A DNA stretch of 64,000 nt from Abditibacterium sp. (GCA_965246885.1 OZ251992.1:704001-768000); one strand, 5' to 3'; shown: positions 45,120 through 54,758, counted from the first letter of the stretch. Numbers and translations are program-made. The notes: generated by a model from the sequence alone, not told the origin.

Positions 45120-45189
45120 ACGTGCCCCGTCAGTTTGCCCACTGCGGCGAAGTCGGGAAACGCGCCGCCGATGGAGGTGTTTCTGCCGT

Positions 45190-45289
45190 CGAAATCCCGA
45201 TTTCTTCGGAGGAAATCGGGATTTCCTCTGAAGAAACCCGGATGCCGCGCAGGGGAATCGGTATTTCCCTCGAAGAAATCGGGATTCGC
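45190..45289. repeat. Second 21-bp-period array type (GAAATC-NN-GATTTC core)
   Basis: Units at 45190, 45211, 45232, 45253, 45274; GAAATCCCGATTTC-N7-GAAATCGGGATTTC is a perfect inverted repeat. Confidence 0.8.
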
Positions 45290-45493
45290 CCCATCACTTT
45301 CCCGACCGGGATGACAAAGCGCTCGGCTTCGCTGGTTGGGTGCCGCCGCTCCGCCGGGGAGCCGCGCGCCGATGAAATTAACGCCGAAGATTTAACAACA
45401 ACTTAACATAGGGGGGTGAAACGGTGGTATGCTTCCCGTCAGCTTTTGCCGAGGAGCCGTTGGCGACGGATTCGAGGGCGAAGGCAGTTGCCC

Positions 45494-45691
45494 ATGAACC
45501 TCGAAGAACGCTTTGAATTCGTTGATTTGGTTGCCCAAGCCGTCGTGGACAAGATGGAAGAGCGCGACCGCATCAATGGCATGGTGAACATGGTCGTGGC
45601 GCGCGTTATCGAGATGCAGCGCGCCGAAGCCGAACTCCCACCCGCCAAAGCCGAGCCGACCGCCACCCCCACCCACCCGAACGCCGCTTAA
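45494..45691 (+). CDS. Small helical hypothetical protein (65 aa), first gene of the Tat-cargo cluster
   Basis: MNLEERFEFVDLVAQAVVDKMEERDRINGMVNMVVARVIEMQ; host-like codon usage. Confidence 0.75.
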   Translation: MNLEERFEFVDLVAQAVVDKMEERDRINGMVNMVVARVIEMQRAEAELPPAKAEPTATPTHPNAA

Positions 45692-45727
45692 TTTTCCTTT
45701 TCGCCCGCCGGGAAAGGATTCATCCCA

Positions 45728-46378
45728 ATGTTCAACCACAACAGCAAGACCAAAGCGCCGGAGAAAAGCGAAGCCATCCCAGCCTCGTCCGACGCCGTTT
45801 CGCCCCGCGCGAAGTTCGAGGAAGAGCGCCTCAGCCGTCGTCAGGCGCTCAAAAAGCTGGGCATCAGCGCGGGCATCATGCTCGTCGCCATGCCCTCCAT
45901 AGACGAACTGGCACGCTTAGCGTCCAAACAACTTGCTGCCAACGCAGGCGATTCGGATTTGGCGAAATCGCTGCGAAATGCGGGTGTGGCTATGGCCGAC
46001 CCAAACAATGAGATTAGTCAGTATGGCCCTTTCCAGTTGGCGGACTGCGAAGAGAGGTGTAAGCTTAAAGCTGCTCAATACGTGATGATAGACGGCGTCA
46101 ATGTCACTGGAACATTAACAAATGCTACAGCGAATAGCCTTGTAGATTATTGTAGGTCTCATCACCCGAACGTAGCGGGTGGCAACTGGGGGCCATACTT
46201 GGATTGTCTAGTTGATGGATTGAACCGCGCTACCAGTGGAAAATATCAATCTGGAACGGATCGTTATATTTTATGTTGCGAGCAGAATTGCATGGATAGT
46301 ATTGACTATCCAAACGGCGGAACTTGCACAAGATACCTTGTATATAATCCGTCTGGAATTTACCATCCCGGGAGATAA
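45728..46378 (+). CDS. Twin-arginine-leader protein with low-GC 8-cysteine C-terminal domain
   Basis: AAGGA RBS; SRRQALKK at aa 36-43, h-region, AxA site (AMA/D) at aa 88-91, then about 126 aa with 8 Cys. Confidence 0.85.
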   Translation: MFNHNSKTKAPEKSEAIPASSDAVSPRAKFEEERLSRRQALKKLGISAGIMLVAMPSIDELARLASKQLAANAGDSDLAKSLRNAGVAMADPNNEISQYGPFQLADCEERCKLKAAQYVMIDGVNVTGTLTNATANSLVDYCRSHHPNVAGGNWGPYLDCLVDGLNRATSGKYQSGTDRYILCCEQNCMDSIDYPNGGTCTRYLVYNPSGIYHPGR

Positions 46379-46429
46379 GCATATTTTCTAAATCCCGCCC
46401 AAAGACCATCAACATATTAAAGACTTTAA

Positions 46430-47494
46430 TTGTATTGTCCGTCTTTTTTTGTCTTGGTGAGATATTTAAGACAACCTCATGTAGTCCTGTCCCCGTTCAA
46501 CAGCATCGTCATTTCTTTTGACGGCTCACAGTTGGCCTCCGTTGGTTACGACACGGCGAGTTCCCAAGGAGTCCTCTATATTCTGCGTCCCAACGGAAAA
46601 CAAATCTCCAAGATTTCAGAAAAGTATTTTATGGACTCTCCTGCGTGGGCGGCAGACTCCAAGACACTATTTTTCTGCATCGACGGAAGCGATAAGCAAG
46701 GTCAAATTGTCAACGCAATTTGCTCGATGGATACCGAGAACCCACCGCAGAGGACGACTGTGGTCGCCAACCCTAAGATGCGTTTGGATCAGCCCGCCGC
46801 TTCTTCGGATGGCGTTCATCTGGCCTACATTCAACAGAACTCAACATCTTTGTCTGGCACGGTTTGGACGACGCGCATACGTGACCTAAACACCAAACAA
46901 GAGTGGGGCATGGATCCGTATCGCAACTTCAAACTCACTCGTCCCACATGGTCAGCCGATGGAACCGTCGTTGCGTTTCAAGGCAGAACGACAATGTCTG
47001 CTGACTCTGAACCGCACTACCTTTCAGAAGACCTCATTCCCTCTCTCGCTGGAGCGGGCGGATTAGTGTGGACAACCGCCAAAGACGGCTTCACCCCCCA
47101 CCTCATCCCCGCCAGATTTGCTGCTTTCGAACCTAACAACGATGGAAGCCAGTTCGCCCTAATAGGTGGGCAAGACAAGAGAGGGCGCAAGCATTTAATG
47201 CAGGTCGTGGATGCCAAGGGCACTCAAATCGCCAGCGTCAAGCGCGAATCCATCAGCGTGGATGTCGCTTGGAACGCGGACAATACAGCCATTTTCTTCT
47301 TCGACCACTTCTACAGCAAAAAGGATTTGGAACTGTGCCGATGGGACATCAAGACGGGCAAGGTGGACGTTCTGCAGGAACTTCCCACATTGCGCGGTAG
47401 AATTTTGGGTTACCGCAACGGCACGTTGTTTTATACGACGGCCACTTGGAAAGAGGACGACACCTGCCAGATCAACCAACTCCGCACCGACTAA
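46430..47494 (+). CDS. TolB/PD40-like beta-propeller protein (5' end possibly frameshifted)
   Basis: Repeats SFDGSQLA, PAWAADSKTL, PAASSDGVHLAY, PTWSADGTVVAF, VAWNADNTAIFF. Confidence 0.8.
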   Translation: MYCPSFFVLVRYLRQPHVVLSPFNSIVISFDGSQLASVGYDTASSQGVLYILRPNGKQISKISEKYFMDSPAWAADSKTLFFCIDGSDKQGQIVNAICSMDTENPPQRTTVVANPKMRLDQPAASSDGVHLAYIQQNSTSLSGTVWTTRIRDLNTKQEWGMDPYRNFKLTRPTWSADGTVVAFQGRTTMSADSEPHYLSEDLIPSLAGAGGLVWTTAKDGFTPHLIPARFAAFEPNNDGSQFALIGGQDKRGRKHLMQVVDAKGTQIASVKRESISVDVAWNADNTAIFFFDHFYSKKDLELCRWDIKTGKVDVLQELPTLRGRILGYRNGTLFYTTATWKEDDTCQINQLRTD

Positions 47495-47500
47495 CTCCTC

Positions 47501-47978
47501 ATGTCGCTCAAGTTTTCTTCTCCGTTGCCCCCGCTAGAGGGCGTGACCCGTTGGGTGGGCGCGGCGCCGATGGATGCCGACCTTGCGGGGCATCCCGTGT
47601 TCGTGCAGTTTTGGGCGGTGTCGTGCGGCTACTGTTTGATGAACGCGCCGCTTATCGCCGGATGGAAGGAGTATTATGGGCCGTTGGGGTTGCGCCTCGT
47701 GACGGTTCACGCTTCGCCGCCTTTAACCGATGCACAGCGCGAGGGGGTCGGCGCGACCATCGAGCGCGCACGGCATCCTGACGCCGTGCGCGCTCGATGA
47801 AGACGACGTGTTGGGCGGACGCTTTCAAACTGACGGCATCTGCCCGCACTACTTCTTCGACGCGAGCCACCGCTTGCGCTCGCGCGCGGCGGGGATGCAA
47901 GGGCTGCACTTGGTCGAAGCATCCATCCGCCGCAGTTTAGGGTTGCCTGAGTTGGTGGTGGAGAAAGCGGGGCGGTGA
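47501..47978 (+). pseudogene. TlpA/redoxin-family thiol-disulfide oxidoreductase, frameshifted
   Basis: PVFVQFWAVSCGYC...VTVH continues in another frame after about 47768 as HGILTPCALD...PHYFFD. Confidence 0.8.
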
Positions 47979-48017
47979 AGCGCCAAGCGCGTCGAGAAGC
48001 AGTAGCAGGAGAAAACC

Positions 48018-48692
48018 ATGAGACGCTCCGCGTTCACCCTTGTAGAAATTTTGGTCGTGCTGGGCATCATCACGCTGCTCGCCGCCATTCTGTTCCCGGC
48101 GTTTGCCCGCGTGCGCGAAGGTGGGCGCTCGGCGTCGTGTCAGGAGAACTTGCACCAAATCGGGCTGGCGACGGCGATGTATGCCGGAGACTACGAGAGC
48201 CATTTCCCCCTTGGCGGCGACCCGATTGATTTGCATTCCAATGTGTGGAGCGCCCAAGACGGGGGGAAGTGGGGCGCTGTCGTGCCGACGCTCAAACCGT
48301 TGCCGGGTGTCATGGCGCCTTATCTCAAAGCTGACGCGACATGGCGCTGCCCTTCGGACTTCGGTTTCAGTCACGCCGAGGGGCACCCGATGAGCCTTCT
48401 CAACACCTACCCCTCGTGCGCCGACAAGTGGGGCATGAGCTACTTTTACAACACGCGCTTAGCGCTCAAGGGCAAGACGCTCGCGGGCGTGCAAGCCTAC
48501 GACGACTTCCTGCCCTACGACACCTACGGCCCCGACCAGATTAGCCTCTTCTACGACGCCGATGGCAGTTGGCACGGCGGCGAGAAGGACGAGCGCCGTT
48601 ACAACGTCCTCATGGCCGATGGACACGTTAAGTCGCAGACGCGCGACCAGTTCACCACGCAACTCTTGCTCGTTCTCGACCCGCCGACATGA
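48018..48692 (+). CDS. Prepilin-type N-terminal cleavage/methylation protein with H-X9-DG motif (DUF1559-like)
   Basis: AFTLVEILVVLGII, LFPAFARVRE, SCQENLHQIG, WRCPSD, H...YNVLMADGHVK; AGGAG RBS. Confidence 0.93.
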   Translation: MRRSAFTLVEILVVLGIITLLAAILFPAFARVREGGRSASCQENLHQIGLATAMYAGDYESHFPLGGDPIDLHSNVWSAQDGGKWGAVVPTLKPLPGVMAPYLKADATWRCPSDFGFSHAEGHPMSLLNTYPSCADKWGMSYFYNTRLALKGKTLAGVQAYDDFLPYDTYGPDQISLFYDADGSWHGGEKDERRYNVLMADGHVKSQTRDQFTTQLLLVLDPPT

Positions 48693-49612
48693 GCGCCCCG
48701 CTCCACTTACACCGCTTCGCCGTCCACTCGTCGCTGCCGCTTCCGGCAGACCCGACGTGCCGGAGCCTCGCGGTGGACGAAACGCGCGACCGCTTGGACA
48801 TCTCGCTGCACCCCTTCGCGGAGTTGCCTTGCCAGTCAGCCCTCGTGCAAACCAAGGAGGTGTACGATTTAGGCGATAGCGTGCTGATTTGGGCGAACGG
48901 TTATGGGATGCAGGTGGACTTCGCCGTCAGTCGCGTCCGCAACTACCTCAACAGCCCCGACTACGCGCCGCAGATCATGAGCCGTCTGCTCAATGTGGGC
49001 TTGTCGGCGGCAACATATCTTCGCGGCGAACTGCCATTGCACGCGGGCGCCGTGTCGCTCGATGGGCAGTTCGTCGGCGTGCTGGCCGCGTCGGGCACGG
49101 GCAAGTCCACGCTCGTCTGGTCGCTTGTGCAGGGCGGCGCGCTTTTTGGTAACGACGATCTTGTGAACGTTGGGATGGGCGGCGCGTCTCCCGTCGCCAT
49201 GCCGTTGGTGTCGCTGGTCCCAAAGCTACGCGCGCCCAGCCTCGAAGCGTGCGCCAATGGCACGTCTGCCGTTGAGACTTACTCCGATTCGGGCGAGTTT
49301 TGGATGCACATCCGCCCCGCGCAGCGCCTGACCGAGCCGCAACCGCTCCGGTGCTTGTTCGCCCTCGAACCGGAGGCGGACGCGACGGACATCACCGCCC
49401 GCCGTTGGAGCGAAGCGGAAGCGTCCCTCCTGTTGCCCACGCACTTGCACGGCGCCCATTTTGGGCGGGCCTTCGTGGGCGCCAAGGCTCTGGACGCGCG
49501 TTTGAAAAAGCTGGCCGAAGCAGTACCCGTTTACTCGCTGTGCTATCCCAAACGCTTCGACCTCCTTCCGGCGCTCATTGACACCATGCGCGGGGTGGCG
49601 GCTGGGGTTTAA
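48689..49612 (+). CDS. HPr kinase-related P-loop kinase
   Basis: LHAGAV, AASGTGKST, NDD motifs; ATGA overlap with the upstream gene. Confidence 0.8.
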   Translation: MSAPLHLHRFAVHSSLPLPADPTCRSLAVDETRDRLDISLHPFAELPCQSALVQTKEVYDLGDSVLIWANGYGMQVDFAVSRVRNYLNSPDYAPQIMSRLLNVGLSAATYLRGELPLHAGAVSLDGQFVGVLAASGTGKSTLVWSLVQGGALFGNDDLVNVGMGGASPVAMPLVSLVPKLRAPSLEACANGTSAVETYSDSGEFWMHIRPAQRLTEPQPLRCLFALEPEADATDITARRWSEAEASLLLPTHLHGAHFGRAFVGAKALDARLKKLAEAVPVYSLCYPKRFDLLPALIDTMRGVAAGV

Positions 49613-51765: not shown

Positions 51766-52383
51766 TTATGCTTGGGAGCCTTCTATTTCCCCAACTTGCG
51801 ACAGGGTATGTGTCACGACGAAGGCGCTCAACAGGGAAAGCGGGGCGCCCACGACCAGTGGCACGGCAGCGAGCGTGGGCAGGGCTGCCGACAAACCAAA
51901 CAGCGTCACTATCCCACAAATGAGGGCGGGTGTCGTGAACGAGGGAAAGATGAGCGCAAACGAGCGCGCCGTTGCGGGAGCCGCATCGGACGACGAATCA
52001 CTCGAATCATTCAAGCTCGCCCGCGACAGGATGTCGGCGTTGGGCGCGACAGTTTCCAAGTCGCGCAAAAGAGAGGGCAAGAACTCCTCGAACGCCATGC
52101 GCGGCGATTGCATTTCCACAGCTTGACGGTAGGCGTCGTAGCGGCGGCGGCGCTTGGCGTCGAGCAAAACGGTGCGCGCTTGGGGCAGCAGTTCAAGTTG
52201 CAACCCCGCTTCTTGGCGGCGCGCGGGGGTGCGGTGGTCGCGGTCGGTTTGCGCTTCTTTGTAGCGGGCGTTAATGTGCTCGCGCAGTTCATCGGCGCCA
52301 AGATCGGTGGAAGCGCCGATGAGAGCGTAGAAGTCCACGAAACCGTCGGCGTGTTGCGCTCCGAGGGTAGGTTGGGTAATCAT
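51766..52383 (-). CDS. J-domain-like membrane protein lacking HPD
   Basis: DFYALIG...ARTVLLDAKRRRRYD; two C-terminal TMs; ORF open to TTG 52410. Confidence 0.7.
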   Translation of the reverse strand: MITQPTLGAQHADGFVDFYALIGASTDLGADELREHINARYKEAQTDRDHRTPARRQEAGLQLELLPQARTVLLDAKRRRRYDAYRQAVEMQSPRMAFEEFLPSLLRDLETVAPNADILSRASLNDSSDSSSDAAPATARSFALIFPSFTTPALICGIVTLFGLSAALPTLAAVPLVVGAPLSLLSAFVVTHTLSQVGEIEGSQA

Positions 52384-52416
52384 AATGGTGTTCGTATCCG
52401 GGTTGAGCAAGTCGTT

Positions 52417-53940
52417 TTACGCGACGACGGCGCGCGACAGCATCTCCTGTTCGAGCGCGACGAGCGCGCTGGAGCGTTCGCCAGACAGGCTCAGAAGCGC
52501 GCGCCCTTCGCGGCCCGTGATCTGATCGCGGGCGAAGACGGTGATGCGCCCGTTTTCGTCGCACCTGAACTCCACTTCGATTTGCGGCTCTCCGGCGGGA
52601 CGAAGCGGCGATGTGTCGAGGTCGAAGCGCCCCACTGGGGCGGAGTAAGAGTCCATGTCGCGCGCCTCGCCCTCGTAGATGAGGACGTTTACGACGGCTT
52701 GGTCGTCTTTTACCGTCGTATAGCCGCGCCGTATCTCGGTGTGCGGAAGCGGCGTCAGAGCGGGCACGACCGGGTCTACTCTCACGTTGCCCTTATGACT
52801 GGTCGCCACGCCGAGGGTATGTGACAGGACATGCCCCACCTTGATGTCGGGCAAAGACCCATCGCCCAACAGTAAGCCCGCTTGGATGGCGGCGCCCTTG
52901 GCCACGCACTCGTCGGGGTCGAAGAGTTGCGGACGCTTGCCCGTCGCGCGCAGCAGCATTTCCCGCACCATCGGCATACGCGAACTGCCGCCCACGCAAA
53001 GCACTTCCGCGATGTCGTCCCATTCCAAACCGGCCTGAGCCAAGACGTTCTCCAGCAGCATTTCGGTGCGCGCGAGCAGGTCGGCGCACAGCGAATCGAG
53101 GTCGGCGCGCGTCACTTCCACGCGCACCGGAAGCAGGGCATCGAGGGCGCTCGTCGGGTTGGCTTTGCGCGCCTTGAACGCGATGGGAGCCGACATCCGC
53201 GCCGAGAGTTGTATCTTGGCGGTTTCAGCCTTGAGGCGAAGCTCCGCTTCAAGGGCGCCGTCGTGGACGATCTCTTCGCCCAGTTCGGCGACCTTTTCCT
53301 CGACGAAGTTCATGATGCGGTCGTCGAAGTCTTTGCCGCCCAAAAACGGGTCGCCACCGACAGCTAATACGTGCAACTCGTCTTGGGAGATTTCGAGGAT
53401 GGTCACGTCGAAGGTGCCGCCGCCAAGGTCGTAGACGAGAATGTTGCGCGTTTCGTCGCGGTTGTTCAATCCGTAAGCGAGGGCTGCCGCCGTCGGCTCG
53501 GAAATGATGCGCAAGACGTTGAGGCCCGCCATTTTCCCGGCTTCAAGGGTCGCTTGACGCTGGTTTTCGTTGAAATAGGCGGGGACAGTGATGACCGCGT
53601 CCGACAAACTCTCGCCCAGTTCAGTCTCGGCGTCTTGAACGAGCTTGCGCAGGATAATGCTCGACAAGAACTCTGGCGAGTAGGAGCGTCCGTCCACGTG
53701 CAAGCGGTGATCGCTTTGGCCCATGAAGCGTTTAACGAACTGGACGACGCGCTCCGGGTCGTTGACGGTGGACTGCAGGGCGACTTCTCCCACGACGAAT
53801 TGCGGCTCGTCCACGAAAATGACGGAAGGCGTGGTGGTGCGGCCTTCGGAGTTCTTGATGATGGCGGGCTTGCCGTATTCGTCCAAGTAGGCAACGGCGG
53901 AATAGGTGGTGCCCAAATCAATGCCAATGGCGCGGTTCAT
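52417..53940 (-). CDS. Non-canonical Hsp70 (DnaK paralogue, 507 aa)
   Basis: GIDLGTTYS, TTPS, VITVPAYF, EPTAAA, YDLGGGTFD, LGGKDFD, VGGSSRMP, PDECVAKGAA. Confidence 0.93.
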   Translation of the reverse strand: MNRAIGIDLGTTYSAVAYLDEYGKPAIIKNSEGRTTTPSVIFVDEPQFVVGEVALQSTVNDPERVVQFVKRFMGQSDHRLHVDGRSYSPEFLSSIILRKLVQDAETELGESLSDAVITVPAYFNENQRQATLEAGKMAGLNVLRIISEPTAAALAYGLNNRDETRNILVYDLGGGTFDVTILEISQDELHVLAVGGDPFLGGKDFDDRIMNFVEEKVAELGEEIVHDGALEAELRLKAETAKIQLSARMSAPIAFKARKANPTSALDALLPVRVEVTRADLDSLCADLLARTEMLLENVLAQAGLEWDDIAEVLCVGGSSRMPMVREMLLRATGKRPQLFDPDECVAKGAAIQAGLLLGDGSLPDIKVGHVLSHTLGVATSHKGNVRVDPVVPALTPLPHTEIRRGYTTVKDDQAVVNVLIYEGEARDMDSYSAPVGRFDLDTSPLRPAGEPQIEVEFRCDENGRITVFARDQITGREGRALLSLSGERSSALVALEQEMLSRAVVA

Positions 53941-54758
53941 GGTGTGTCTCCTTCTGTTTTAGGGGCTTTGCCCACGACGACTTCGGTTGGACGCAGGACA
54001 TGGCCTTTGAGCGTCCAACCGGGACGCGCCACGCTTTGCACGAGGCCGTCTTGTTCCGGCGCGACGGGAACTGTCGCCACCGCTTTTTGTCCGTGCGCGT
54101 CGAAGTGGCCTGCCGGTGTCGGCAACAGTTCGACTTCGCATGTGAGAAGCGCCTGCTCGAACTGGTCGCGCACGAACGCGATGTTGTCGCGGACTTTGTC
54201 GGCGCGTAGCGCGTTGGGCGCGAGGTTTTGGGCGGTCTGCGCCGTCTGATGAAGCGCCATTTCACGGTCGAACTCTTCGAGTGCGTCGAACACGAACAGC
54301 AGGGGGCGCAGAAGGGGCTTGACGTGTTCAAATACGAAGTCGCGCTTGTAATTCAACATTTCGGCGTGCAACGCGTCGAAGAGGCGCTCCGACTCGGAGT
54401 TCCTATGCCGCATGCCCGCGACATCGGTGCGCACCGCTTCAAGGCACCCCTGCATTTGCGTGATGGCCCCGGCCATCGCGCCAAGGGCATCGAGCAAATC
54501 TATCTCGTCGGGCGCGTGCTCTGGCTCGAGCGCCGCCATCGGCGCGTCAGTGGCAGACGTCTGGGAACCATTCCCGGACGTCTGGGAACCGGCGGCGGGC
54601 GTCGGCGGAACGGTTACGGGTGGCGCTCCGCGCCCCACGACCCTCCCGCGAACGCCCGCGAGCATCGCGGACACACTGGGTTTGGCTGTCGGCGCGTCTG
54701 GGGCGGCGGCGGGAGAAGCGCCGACAAACGCCAATTGGGAATTGAAGGAGTTGAACAT
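53937..54758 (-). CDS. grpE: GrpE-family nucleotide exchange factor
   Basis: Coiled coil, LLFVFDALE, FDAHGQKAV, RPGWTLKGHVLRPTEVVV; ATGA overlap with hsp70. Confidence 0.85.
   Translation of the reverse strand: MFNSFNSQLAFVGASPAAAPDAPTAKPSVSAMLAGVRGRVVGRGAPPVTVPPTPAAGSQTSGNGSQTSATDAPMAALEPEHAPDEIDLLDALGAMAGAITQMQGCLEAVRTDVAGMRHRNSESERLFDALHAEMLNYKRDFVFEHVKPLLRPLLFVFDALEEFDREMALHQTAQTAQNLAPNALRADKVRDNIAFVRDQFEQALLTCEVELLPTPAGHFDAHGQKAVATVPVAPEQDGLVQSVARPGWTLKGHVLRPTEVVVGKAPKTEGDTP
54551..54592. repeat. Two-unit 21-bp array in frame within the grpE linker
   Basis: TGGCAGACGTCTGGGA-ACCAT-TCCCGGACGTCTGGGA; encodes GSQTSGN-GSQTSAT. Confidence 0.8.

Follow-up and report, generated by a model that had tools for sequence, protein, structure and literature searches.

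A 64-kb stretch of Abditibacterium sp. DNA, referred to here as the window, contains six co-oriented open reading frames (ORFs) on the + strand (45494..49612), which belong to a conserved and apparently undescribed system combining a small helical protein, a long twin-arginine leader and an exchangeable, cysteine-rich cargo. The leader, small gene and cargo form a real and conserved unit, whose architecture is very probably that of a modular export system, in which a constant leader serves swappable cargos. A first-pass annotation, made from the sequence alone, had proposed a polymorphic effector system exported by twin-arginine translocation (Tat) at this site; its export module, cargo exchange and small gene stood up to follow-up analysis, with the corrections that the propeller is not a conserved component and that the redoxin here is frameshifted. 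No Pfam or NCBIfam family covers the leader, small protein or cargos, and no description of the system was found in full-text literature searches whose scope excluded subscription journals and supplements.

The precursor gene begins with the leader (45728..45997, RR codons at 45836-45841), which comprises an n-region of about 35 residues, the motif SRRQALKK, a hydrophobic h-region of about 15 residues, an acidic pair, a two-helix insert (approximately 45902-45982) and a G-V-A-M-A site. It continues into a 126-residue cargo (45998..46378, GC content 0.45), predicted to be all-helical. The earlier description of this protein was accurate, with SRRQ from residue 36, AMAD at residue 88 (predicted cut after residue 90), and eight cysteines in the cargo (residues 107, 111, 142, 160, 183, 184, 188 and 200 of the precursor). 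A search with the precursor (P0001) returned four homologues, three near full length and one leader-only, while a profile of the leader (residues ~25-90) matched 298 protein clusters at 50% identity and at least 149 proteins in a 90% database. Among the 247 best-scoring leader-bearing proteins, a selection that favours ungapped leaders, the RR pair, whose loss had been named as evidence against the proposal, is kept in 246, and a G-x-A-x-A-type site lies exactly 58 residues past RR in 245 of 246, the window protein alone having 54; the h-region and the AxA-type site are likewise conserved. The column profile reads E-x-E-[RK]-L-[TS]-R-R-x-A-L-K-K-F-G, followed by a 15-residue hydrophobic stretch, an acidic pair, two amphipathic helices and a cleavage-like motif, and a low-confidence AlphaFold2 model places helices at residues 26-43, 58-71 and 76-84. 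TatC was found in all six host genomes tested. Family scans of the small protein and precursor gave nothing except a sub-threshold Tat-signal match, and no structure match for the small protein, leader or propeller was found in the PDB. An origin of the insert from the PqqD-type RiPP recognition element (RRE; RiPP, ribosomally synthesized and post-translationally modified peptide), raised by a weak PDB match (E 0.24), was rejected because profile comparison was at chance (hhalign 13.7; shuffles to 13.0); neither leader nor small protein resembles PqqD above chance by hhalign. In three proteins (P0247, P0248 and P0249) the leader is partly duplicated, with an extra RR-like segment upstream of the normal one.

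The small gene (45494..45691) encodes a 65-residue helical protein with a 46-residue conserved core, which has 445 homologues, with no Pfam domain in the 120 listed. In the loci read, it lies directly upstream of 45 of 50 leader genes, confirming the co-occurrence that had been put forward as a check; the five exceptions are a contig start, two inner copies of a tandem array, an orphan and a distant Ser-rich protein. When aligned with the leader insert, the small-protein profile needs no gaps (hhalign score 23.6, E 1e-4), compared with maxima of 17.4 in 100 column shuffles and 20.7 in 60 seven-column block shuffles. The small protein is a free-standing look-alike of the insert, a modest likeness that could also arise by convergence of amphipathic helices, and it is likely, as a prediction, to be a leader-binding targeting factor or chaperone. 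P0216 is an in-frame fusion of small protein and precursor, and P0345 is a second such fusion with an N-terminal helix-turn-helix-like part, which may be a gene-calling artefact. The ESM Atlas returned nothing for the small protein (best 0.78).

Cargo exchange was assessed by comparing 46 complete units (1035 pairs; five broken or open units left out), after the dropping of near-duplicate loci (L086, L101, L107, L111) and loci ending in the small gene (L090, L096, L099); the loci are related by descent and are not independent. Median identity is 49% for the leader versus 24% for the cargo, the latter compared with 23% for shuffled cargo, and of the 58 pairs whose leaders share 80% identity or more, 53 have unrelated cargos. 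In the tandem copies of L046 the leader DNA is identical (pS 0) and the cargos differ (pS 0.58); L042 and L049, conversely, have cargos 72% alike and partners 64% alike on leaders only 45% alike. The 237 cargos of at least 35 residues (ten shorter ones dropped from the 247 proteins) form 127 sequence clusters (BLAST E<1e-8), and, as had been predicted, many homologues have the leader in common but not the cargo. These results bear out the constant leader with an exchangeable cysteine-rich cargo. Full-length conservation, named beforehand as the outcome contrary to exchange, occurs locally, for the window cargo, which groups only with P0004 and P0005 (close full-length homologues of the precursor are P0004 at 52%, P0005 at 45% and P0006 at 39%); it is not family-wide, because this cargo family is one of the 127 clusters.

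The cargos are rich in C, G, A, S and N, with a median net charge of -2; 233 of the 237 have at least four cysteines, and the count is even in 213 of these 233. The AlphaFold model of the window cargo (five sequences, mean pLDDT 56) is a four-helix domain. Long Ser/Gly-rich cargos occur on the same leader in L067 and L069, and in L100 (1950-3827), P0175, P0196 and P0220 the leader carries a 292-residue cargo that lacks both cysteine and any Pfam match; a 240-residue exported protein comes next.

The fall in GC content reported for the cargo region was reproduced, from 0.70 and 0.62 (45781-45900) to 0.45 (46081-46140), 0.40 (46261-46320) and 0.32 (46381-46440), as was its recovery by about 47.5 kb (at least 0.60 again from 47521); the AT-richness of the cargo is reached by 0.15% of non-overlapping 381-nt segments of the chromosome (n=9139). 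The low-GC region extends into the gene downstream of the cargo. Such downstream genes have a hydrophobic N-terminus in 40 of 44 cases and a GC content more than 0.05 below their locus in 41 of 44; many have a lipobox, some have TPR or HEAT repeats, and the slot usually holds 60-240-residue membrane-anchored or lipoprotein-like proteins, here called partners. Where two cargos match at E<1e-15 and each is followed by a gene, the following genes are homologous in all five pairs (among them a tandem duplicate and a pair with the pilin in this position), and the same holds for L061 and L048. The variable adjacent gene postulated earlier corresponds to a low-GC gene that appears to move between leaders together with the cargo. 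Tandem arrays occur in L040, L046 and L108, an extra partner-like gene is present in L046, and in L061 an orphan cassette, its leader truncated, sits amid three partner-like genes.

In the window, the partner slot is occupied by a TolB-like beta-propeller (46430..47494, GC 0.52, PD40 28.2 bits), which had been proposed as partner or immunity protein. It has no match in 400 other genomes of the phylum at E<=1e-10 and therefore belongs to the variable slot; the position agrees with the proposal, but the protein is unique to the window cassette and is not a conserved component. The earlier annotation missed that its ORF has no in-frame hydrophobic N-terminus. A 12-residue hydrophobic, signal- or anchor-like stretch (mean 2.5) lies in another frame at 46423..46458, over a T7 run, and is possibly the lost N-terminus of the propeller.

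The remaining genes of the window locus were also found at their annotated positions, and the domain calls were right for all four downstream proteins (PD40/TolB-like propeller, thioredoxin-like, N_methyl+DUF1559+H-X9-DG, HprK-related kinase); Pfam matches are above cut-off for the propeller and pilin, and Pfam/NCBIfam-type matches are subthreshold for the redoxin and kinase. Neighbours up to 5 kb from the precursor were counted in 47 loci, using profiles seeded from these same loci. A redoxin occurs in 36 of 47 loci, or 36 of 39 once loci cut off within 700 nt are set aside; the locus-type pilin occurs in 26, an AhpC-type peroxiredoxin in 19, an HprK-like kinase and a glycosyltransferase (GT)-like protein in nine each, NTP_transf_5 in five and an AbiEii-like protein in four. 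The AbiEii-like nucleotidyltransferase genes of L037, L038, L054 and L069 lie inside or beside the operons and are co-oriented with them, and the operons of L041, L055, L100, L102-L106 and L110 include between one and three genes of a GT-A-like family that has no name.

The redoxins share the motif FWxxSCPxC (CPxC in 34 of 36), and no signal peptide was seen in them, so that any folding role would be cytoplasmic. The window copy, a signal-less TlpA/ResA-like protein with CGYC (47501..47978), had been read as a folding factor; the redoxin is indeed a recurrent operon member, but this copy is frameshifted, being split over two frames (47501-47800 and to 47978) with the break at about 47761-47772, and its halves match positions 1-87 and 91-151 of the family profile. 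The break lies inside one arm of a 20-bp inverted repeat (47758-47799, 95%, 2-nt spacer). Quasi-palindromes can template mutations, and the position of the repeat fits such an event. Assembly error as a cause of the frame breaks in redoxin and propeller is unsupported, the contigs of two public runs having no other letters and no gaps there; both runs are from one study, and one may be the source of the sequence.

The prepilin-like gene (48018..48692), rightly placed in the operon by the first-pass annotation, encodes an H-X9-DG protein that scores 256 bits against the locus profile, compared with at most 126 for 64 other hits in its own genome. In a tree, 22 of 23 locus pilins, that of the window included, form one clade (support 0.998) containing no own-genome paralogue. 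The own genome has 65 matches to the prepilin/H-X9-DG profile and six secretin matches, and secretins are present in all five genomes tested. The HprK-related kinase (48689..49612; TIGR04352 22.8 bits, far below cut-off) is the only copy of its profile in the own genome and may be a tailoring enzyme; it and the peroxiredoxin are optional operon components.

The system is patchily distributed. The leader profile matched 25 of 401 genomes of the phylum, with up to four copies per genome; two matches in one genome are ordinary Tat signals. Record labels are Armatimonadota for 28 of the 29 loci found via the small protein, the remaining record (L095) being nominally from Janthinobacterium lividum, and the small-protein homologue P0081 is assigned to Capsulimonas corticalis by one source. 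A pattern scan of genome contigs with P0001 found nothing, and viral contigs gave none. The window copy was likely imported from another lineage and is partly decayed, because the system is absent from the 26 other genomes of the family, the leader is four residues shorter, the redoxin is broken, the propeller is anchorless and there is no close peroxiredoxin; the own genome contains no paralogue of the leader, cargo or small gene. Run X1 contains, at a depth of about 2, a second organism with an operon ~87% identical in nucleotides in the small gene and leader (window 45403-45866 and 47172-47267). The low-depth X1 contig matches the leader end and the 3' end of the propeller gene, with 1303 letters between them that are less than 80% alike; it derives from a related organism, and its middle may reflect divergence and not replacement.

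Twelve further genomes contain a distant branch of the small gene. Of the 19 distant matches inspected, a long RR leader comes next in 12 and tatA in one, a contig edge cuts off three, and three show neither a leader nor tatA; among the 12 proteins with such a leader, 11 have canonical RRxF[LI] and ten have at least ten cysteines. The homologue in L150 (3736-4340, -) lies immediately next to tatA, which scores above the TIGR01411 cut-off, and a gene for a multiheme cytochrome c comes after it. L146 and L149 contain radical SAM/SPASM genes, PapB/QhpD-like and closest to peptide thioether maturases. The AEAVVRK small gene, an RRxF[LI] leader and FxC-repeat cores with 10-31 cysteines are shared by L146, L148, L149, L156, L159, L160, L161, L169, L170 and L172, with a prepilin-like gene after the core in L146, L148 and L149. 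These loci look like an undescribed ranthipeptide-like family.

For the main branch, the following mechanism is proposed. The small protein would pair with the two-helix leader insert and hold or escort the precursor to Tat, as chaperone or hitch-hiker; Tat is known to move folded proteins and partner subunits. The signal-less CPxC redoxin would set the cargo cysteines in the cytoplasm ahead of export, an order of events that would account for Tat being the route; the 2-Cys peroxiredoxin of many loci may be its oxidant, peroxiredoxins being able to oxidise thioredoxin-fold proteins. The optional kinase, nucleotidyltransferase or, in the distant branch, radical SAM enzymes may tailor the cargo. 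After Tat export the 58-residue leader would be cut at the AxA-type site, and the H-X9-DG pseudopilin would couple the cargo to a type II secretion or type IV pilus machine with its secretin; type II secretion accepts Tat substrates. The membrane-anchored partner would bind the cargo and protect the producer. To this reading, in which secreted antibacterial cargos would be neutralised by the downstream partner, we give about an even chance. A more ambitious version is offered tentatively, as a possibility that is probably not correct in full: a Tat platform in which a folded two-helix signal-peptide domain would oligomerise with its free copy, so that one leader carries hundreds of unrelated peptides, a cytoplasmic peroxiredoxin-redoxin relay would write disulfides ahead of export (or radical SAM enzymes thioethers in the sister branch), and an H-X9-DG pseudopilin would deliver the product via a secretin.

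Several observations weigh against antagonism or against individual steps of the mechanism. The cargos are mostly neutral to acidic, unlike cationic antimicrobial peptides; dN/dS is about 0.2 among related cargos, indicating purifying and not positive selection; no Pfam cut-off was passed in 26 cargos or four full-length homologues, with no match to a toxin family; and a fold search among 48161 chains, uninformative at the pLDDT of 56 of the cargo model, gave none at Z>=5 (best Z 4.7). Three to four cargos are long and either lack cysteine or are rich in serine. Pairing of cargo and partner is loose: the downstream genes are homologous in 45 pairs, of which 38 combine them with unrelated cargos; partners are common to only two of the 17 pairs whose cargos are weakly related; and in four of 44 units the pilin directly follows the cargo. 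The likeness of small protein and insert becomes weaker with a larger alignment, and the neighbour profiles were seeded from the very loci counted. In the own genome the redoxin is broken, a close AhpC-type peroxiredoxin is lacking and a VKOR is present, so that disulfides could form after export; a weak MauE match lies elsewhere in it, and DsbB was not found.

Some of these points would suit kin recognition or signalling, in which the same export module would deliver a ligand to the partner as its receptor. Ciliate pheromones are acidic, helical, Cys-rich peptides, and the cargos are likewise neutral or acidic and helical, evolve under purifying selection within families, and are accompanied by membrane-anchored partners with TPR/HEAT or propeller binding folds common to unrelated cargos. 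However, the 127 cargo clusters, together with orphan cassettes and additional partner genes, are in keeping with a conflict system, and no recurrent signal-transduction gene is present among the 87 neighbours scanned; we regard this explanation as unlikely. The conserved leader and hypervariable core would also suit a RiPP-type family, compatible with antagonism, in which the leader would be a handle for cytoplasmic maturases, the modified peptide would be exported by Tat and the pilin would serve as display scaffold. The distant FxC-repeat cores beside PapB/QhpD-like radical SAM enzymes (L146, L149) and the candidate tailoring genes (HprK-like, NTP_transf_5, AbiEii-like and GT-like) counted above point in this direction, but the redoxin alone is near-universal among the maturases, the RRE/PqqD comparison was at chance, cores of 60-290 residues are long, and most of the GT-like loci belong to a single set of related metagenome contigs; we regard this view, too, as improbable.

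A reading of the cargo as a MauA-like enzyme small subunit or as a metal-binding or redox protein, in which the redoxin would correspond to MauD and the propeller to the large subunit, is suggested by the adjacent CxxC redoxin and nearby peroxiredoxin and by a weak lead from the ESM Atlas, in which P0001 lies near methylamine dehydrogenase light chains (0.90, 117/256 shared features). It is largely refuted by cargo diversity, the cargos sharing no residue pattern or length, and is very unlikely given also that there is no PF02975 match, the propeller occurs only in the window locus, and no MauE is found among the 87 neighbours scanned. The export step itself might be doubted, since the main-branch motif RRxALK and a site 58 residues past RR are atypical for Tat, and the window leader reaches 15.2 bits against the TIGR01409 cut-off of 16.7 (4 of 31 leader members match this family at E<=0.1); leader and small protein would then form a cytoplasmic or membrane-anchored scaffold to which the cargo stays attached. 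Near-invariance of RR (246/247), conservation of the h-region and AxA site, and the canonical motifs and tatA adjacency of the distant branch make this highly improbable, and export of exchangeable cargos by Tat remains the preferred reading.

Among known systems, the one described here would work most like the LXG polymorphic toxins. These toxins are secreted by type VIIb, with a helical N-terminal trafficking domain bound by the small helical partners Lap1 and Lap2 and a variable C-terminus (PMC9600955). The likeness lies in the conserved helical N-terminal region, variable C-terminus and co-encoded small helical protein, but the Armatimonadota system has a twin-arginine leader in a diderm phylum, small Cys-rich cargos, and a redoxin and pseudopilin in the operon, and none of the 31 leaders and 29 small proteins scanned matches an LXG/WXG100 Pfam model at E<=1. 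An ordinary Tat signal peptide (TIGR01409) shares the RR motif, n-h-c order, AxA-type site and a dedicated small partner gene, its dedicated chaperones being of the TorD/NapD type; by contrast, the c-region here holds a fixed-length two-helix insert of ~35 residues, which the small partner resembles. RiPP comparators include ranthipeptides (PapB- and QhpD-type radical SAM enzymes), glycocins with BdbA/B and the HprK-like kinases of lasso peptides. They share a conserved leader, a hypervariable Cys-rich core and co-encoded redox or tailoring enzymes, but the present system has a Tat-type leader with an h-region instead of a double-glycine leader and C39 exporter, has no RRE, and includes a membrane partner and pseudopilin; neither PqqD-type RRE nor C39 exporter families were found among the 87 neighbours scanned. 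MauA is exported by Tat. In addition to its feature likeness in the ESM Atlas, it resembles the cargo in being a Cys-rich protein beside a dedicated CxxC thioredoxin-fold protein, as set out with MauD/MauE in a recent preprint (bioRxiv 10.64898/2026.03.05.709764). The present cargos differ in having no conserved catalytic core, a redoxin without signal peptide, exchangeability, and no MauE or conserved large subunit in the loci scanned; the system belongs to neither the LXG/Lap nor the MauA/MauD group.

In the surroundings of the window locus, three imperfect palindromic repeats of ~31 nt (resembling repetitive extragenic palindromes or operators) lie upstream of the small gene at 45179-45286. 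No sigma-70-type promoter was found, terminators were at chance level, and Rfam gave no matches in 20 loci. Co-oriented GrpE-like, Hsp70-like and J-domain-like ORFs, read from the sequence, lie at 51766-54758 (-).

Leader and small protein represent two protein families without a name so far, and their operon is conserved within a phylum that has received little study. Should the proposed steps hold, they would establish Tat-exported polymorphic effectors, a peroxiredoxin-tied cytoplasmic maturation of cysteines, a signal peptide with a partner-binding domain, and a role for H-X9-DG pilins; the platform model, if true, would provide the first function for H-X9-DG prepilin-like proteins and well over 100 new disulfide-rich folds in bacterial conflict. 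New disulfide-rich scaffolds can be drawn from the 127 cargo clusters, and the assignment of P0081 to Capsulimonas corticalis suggests that work in a cultured strain is feasible.

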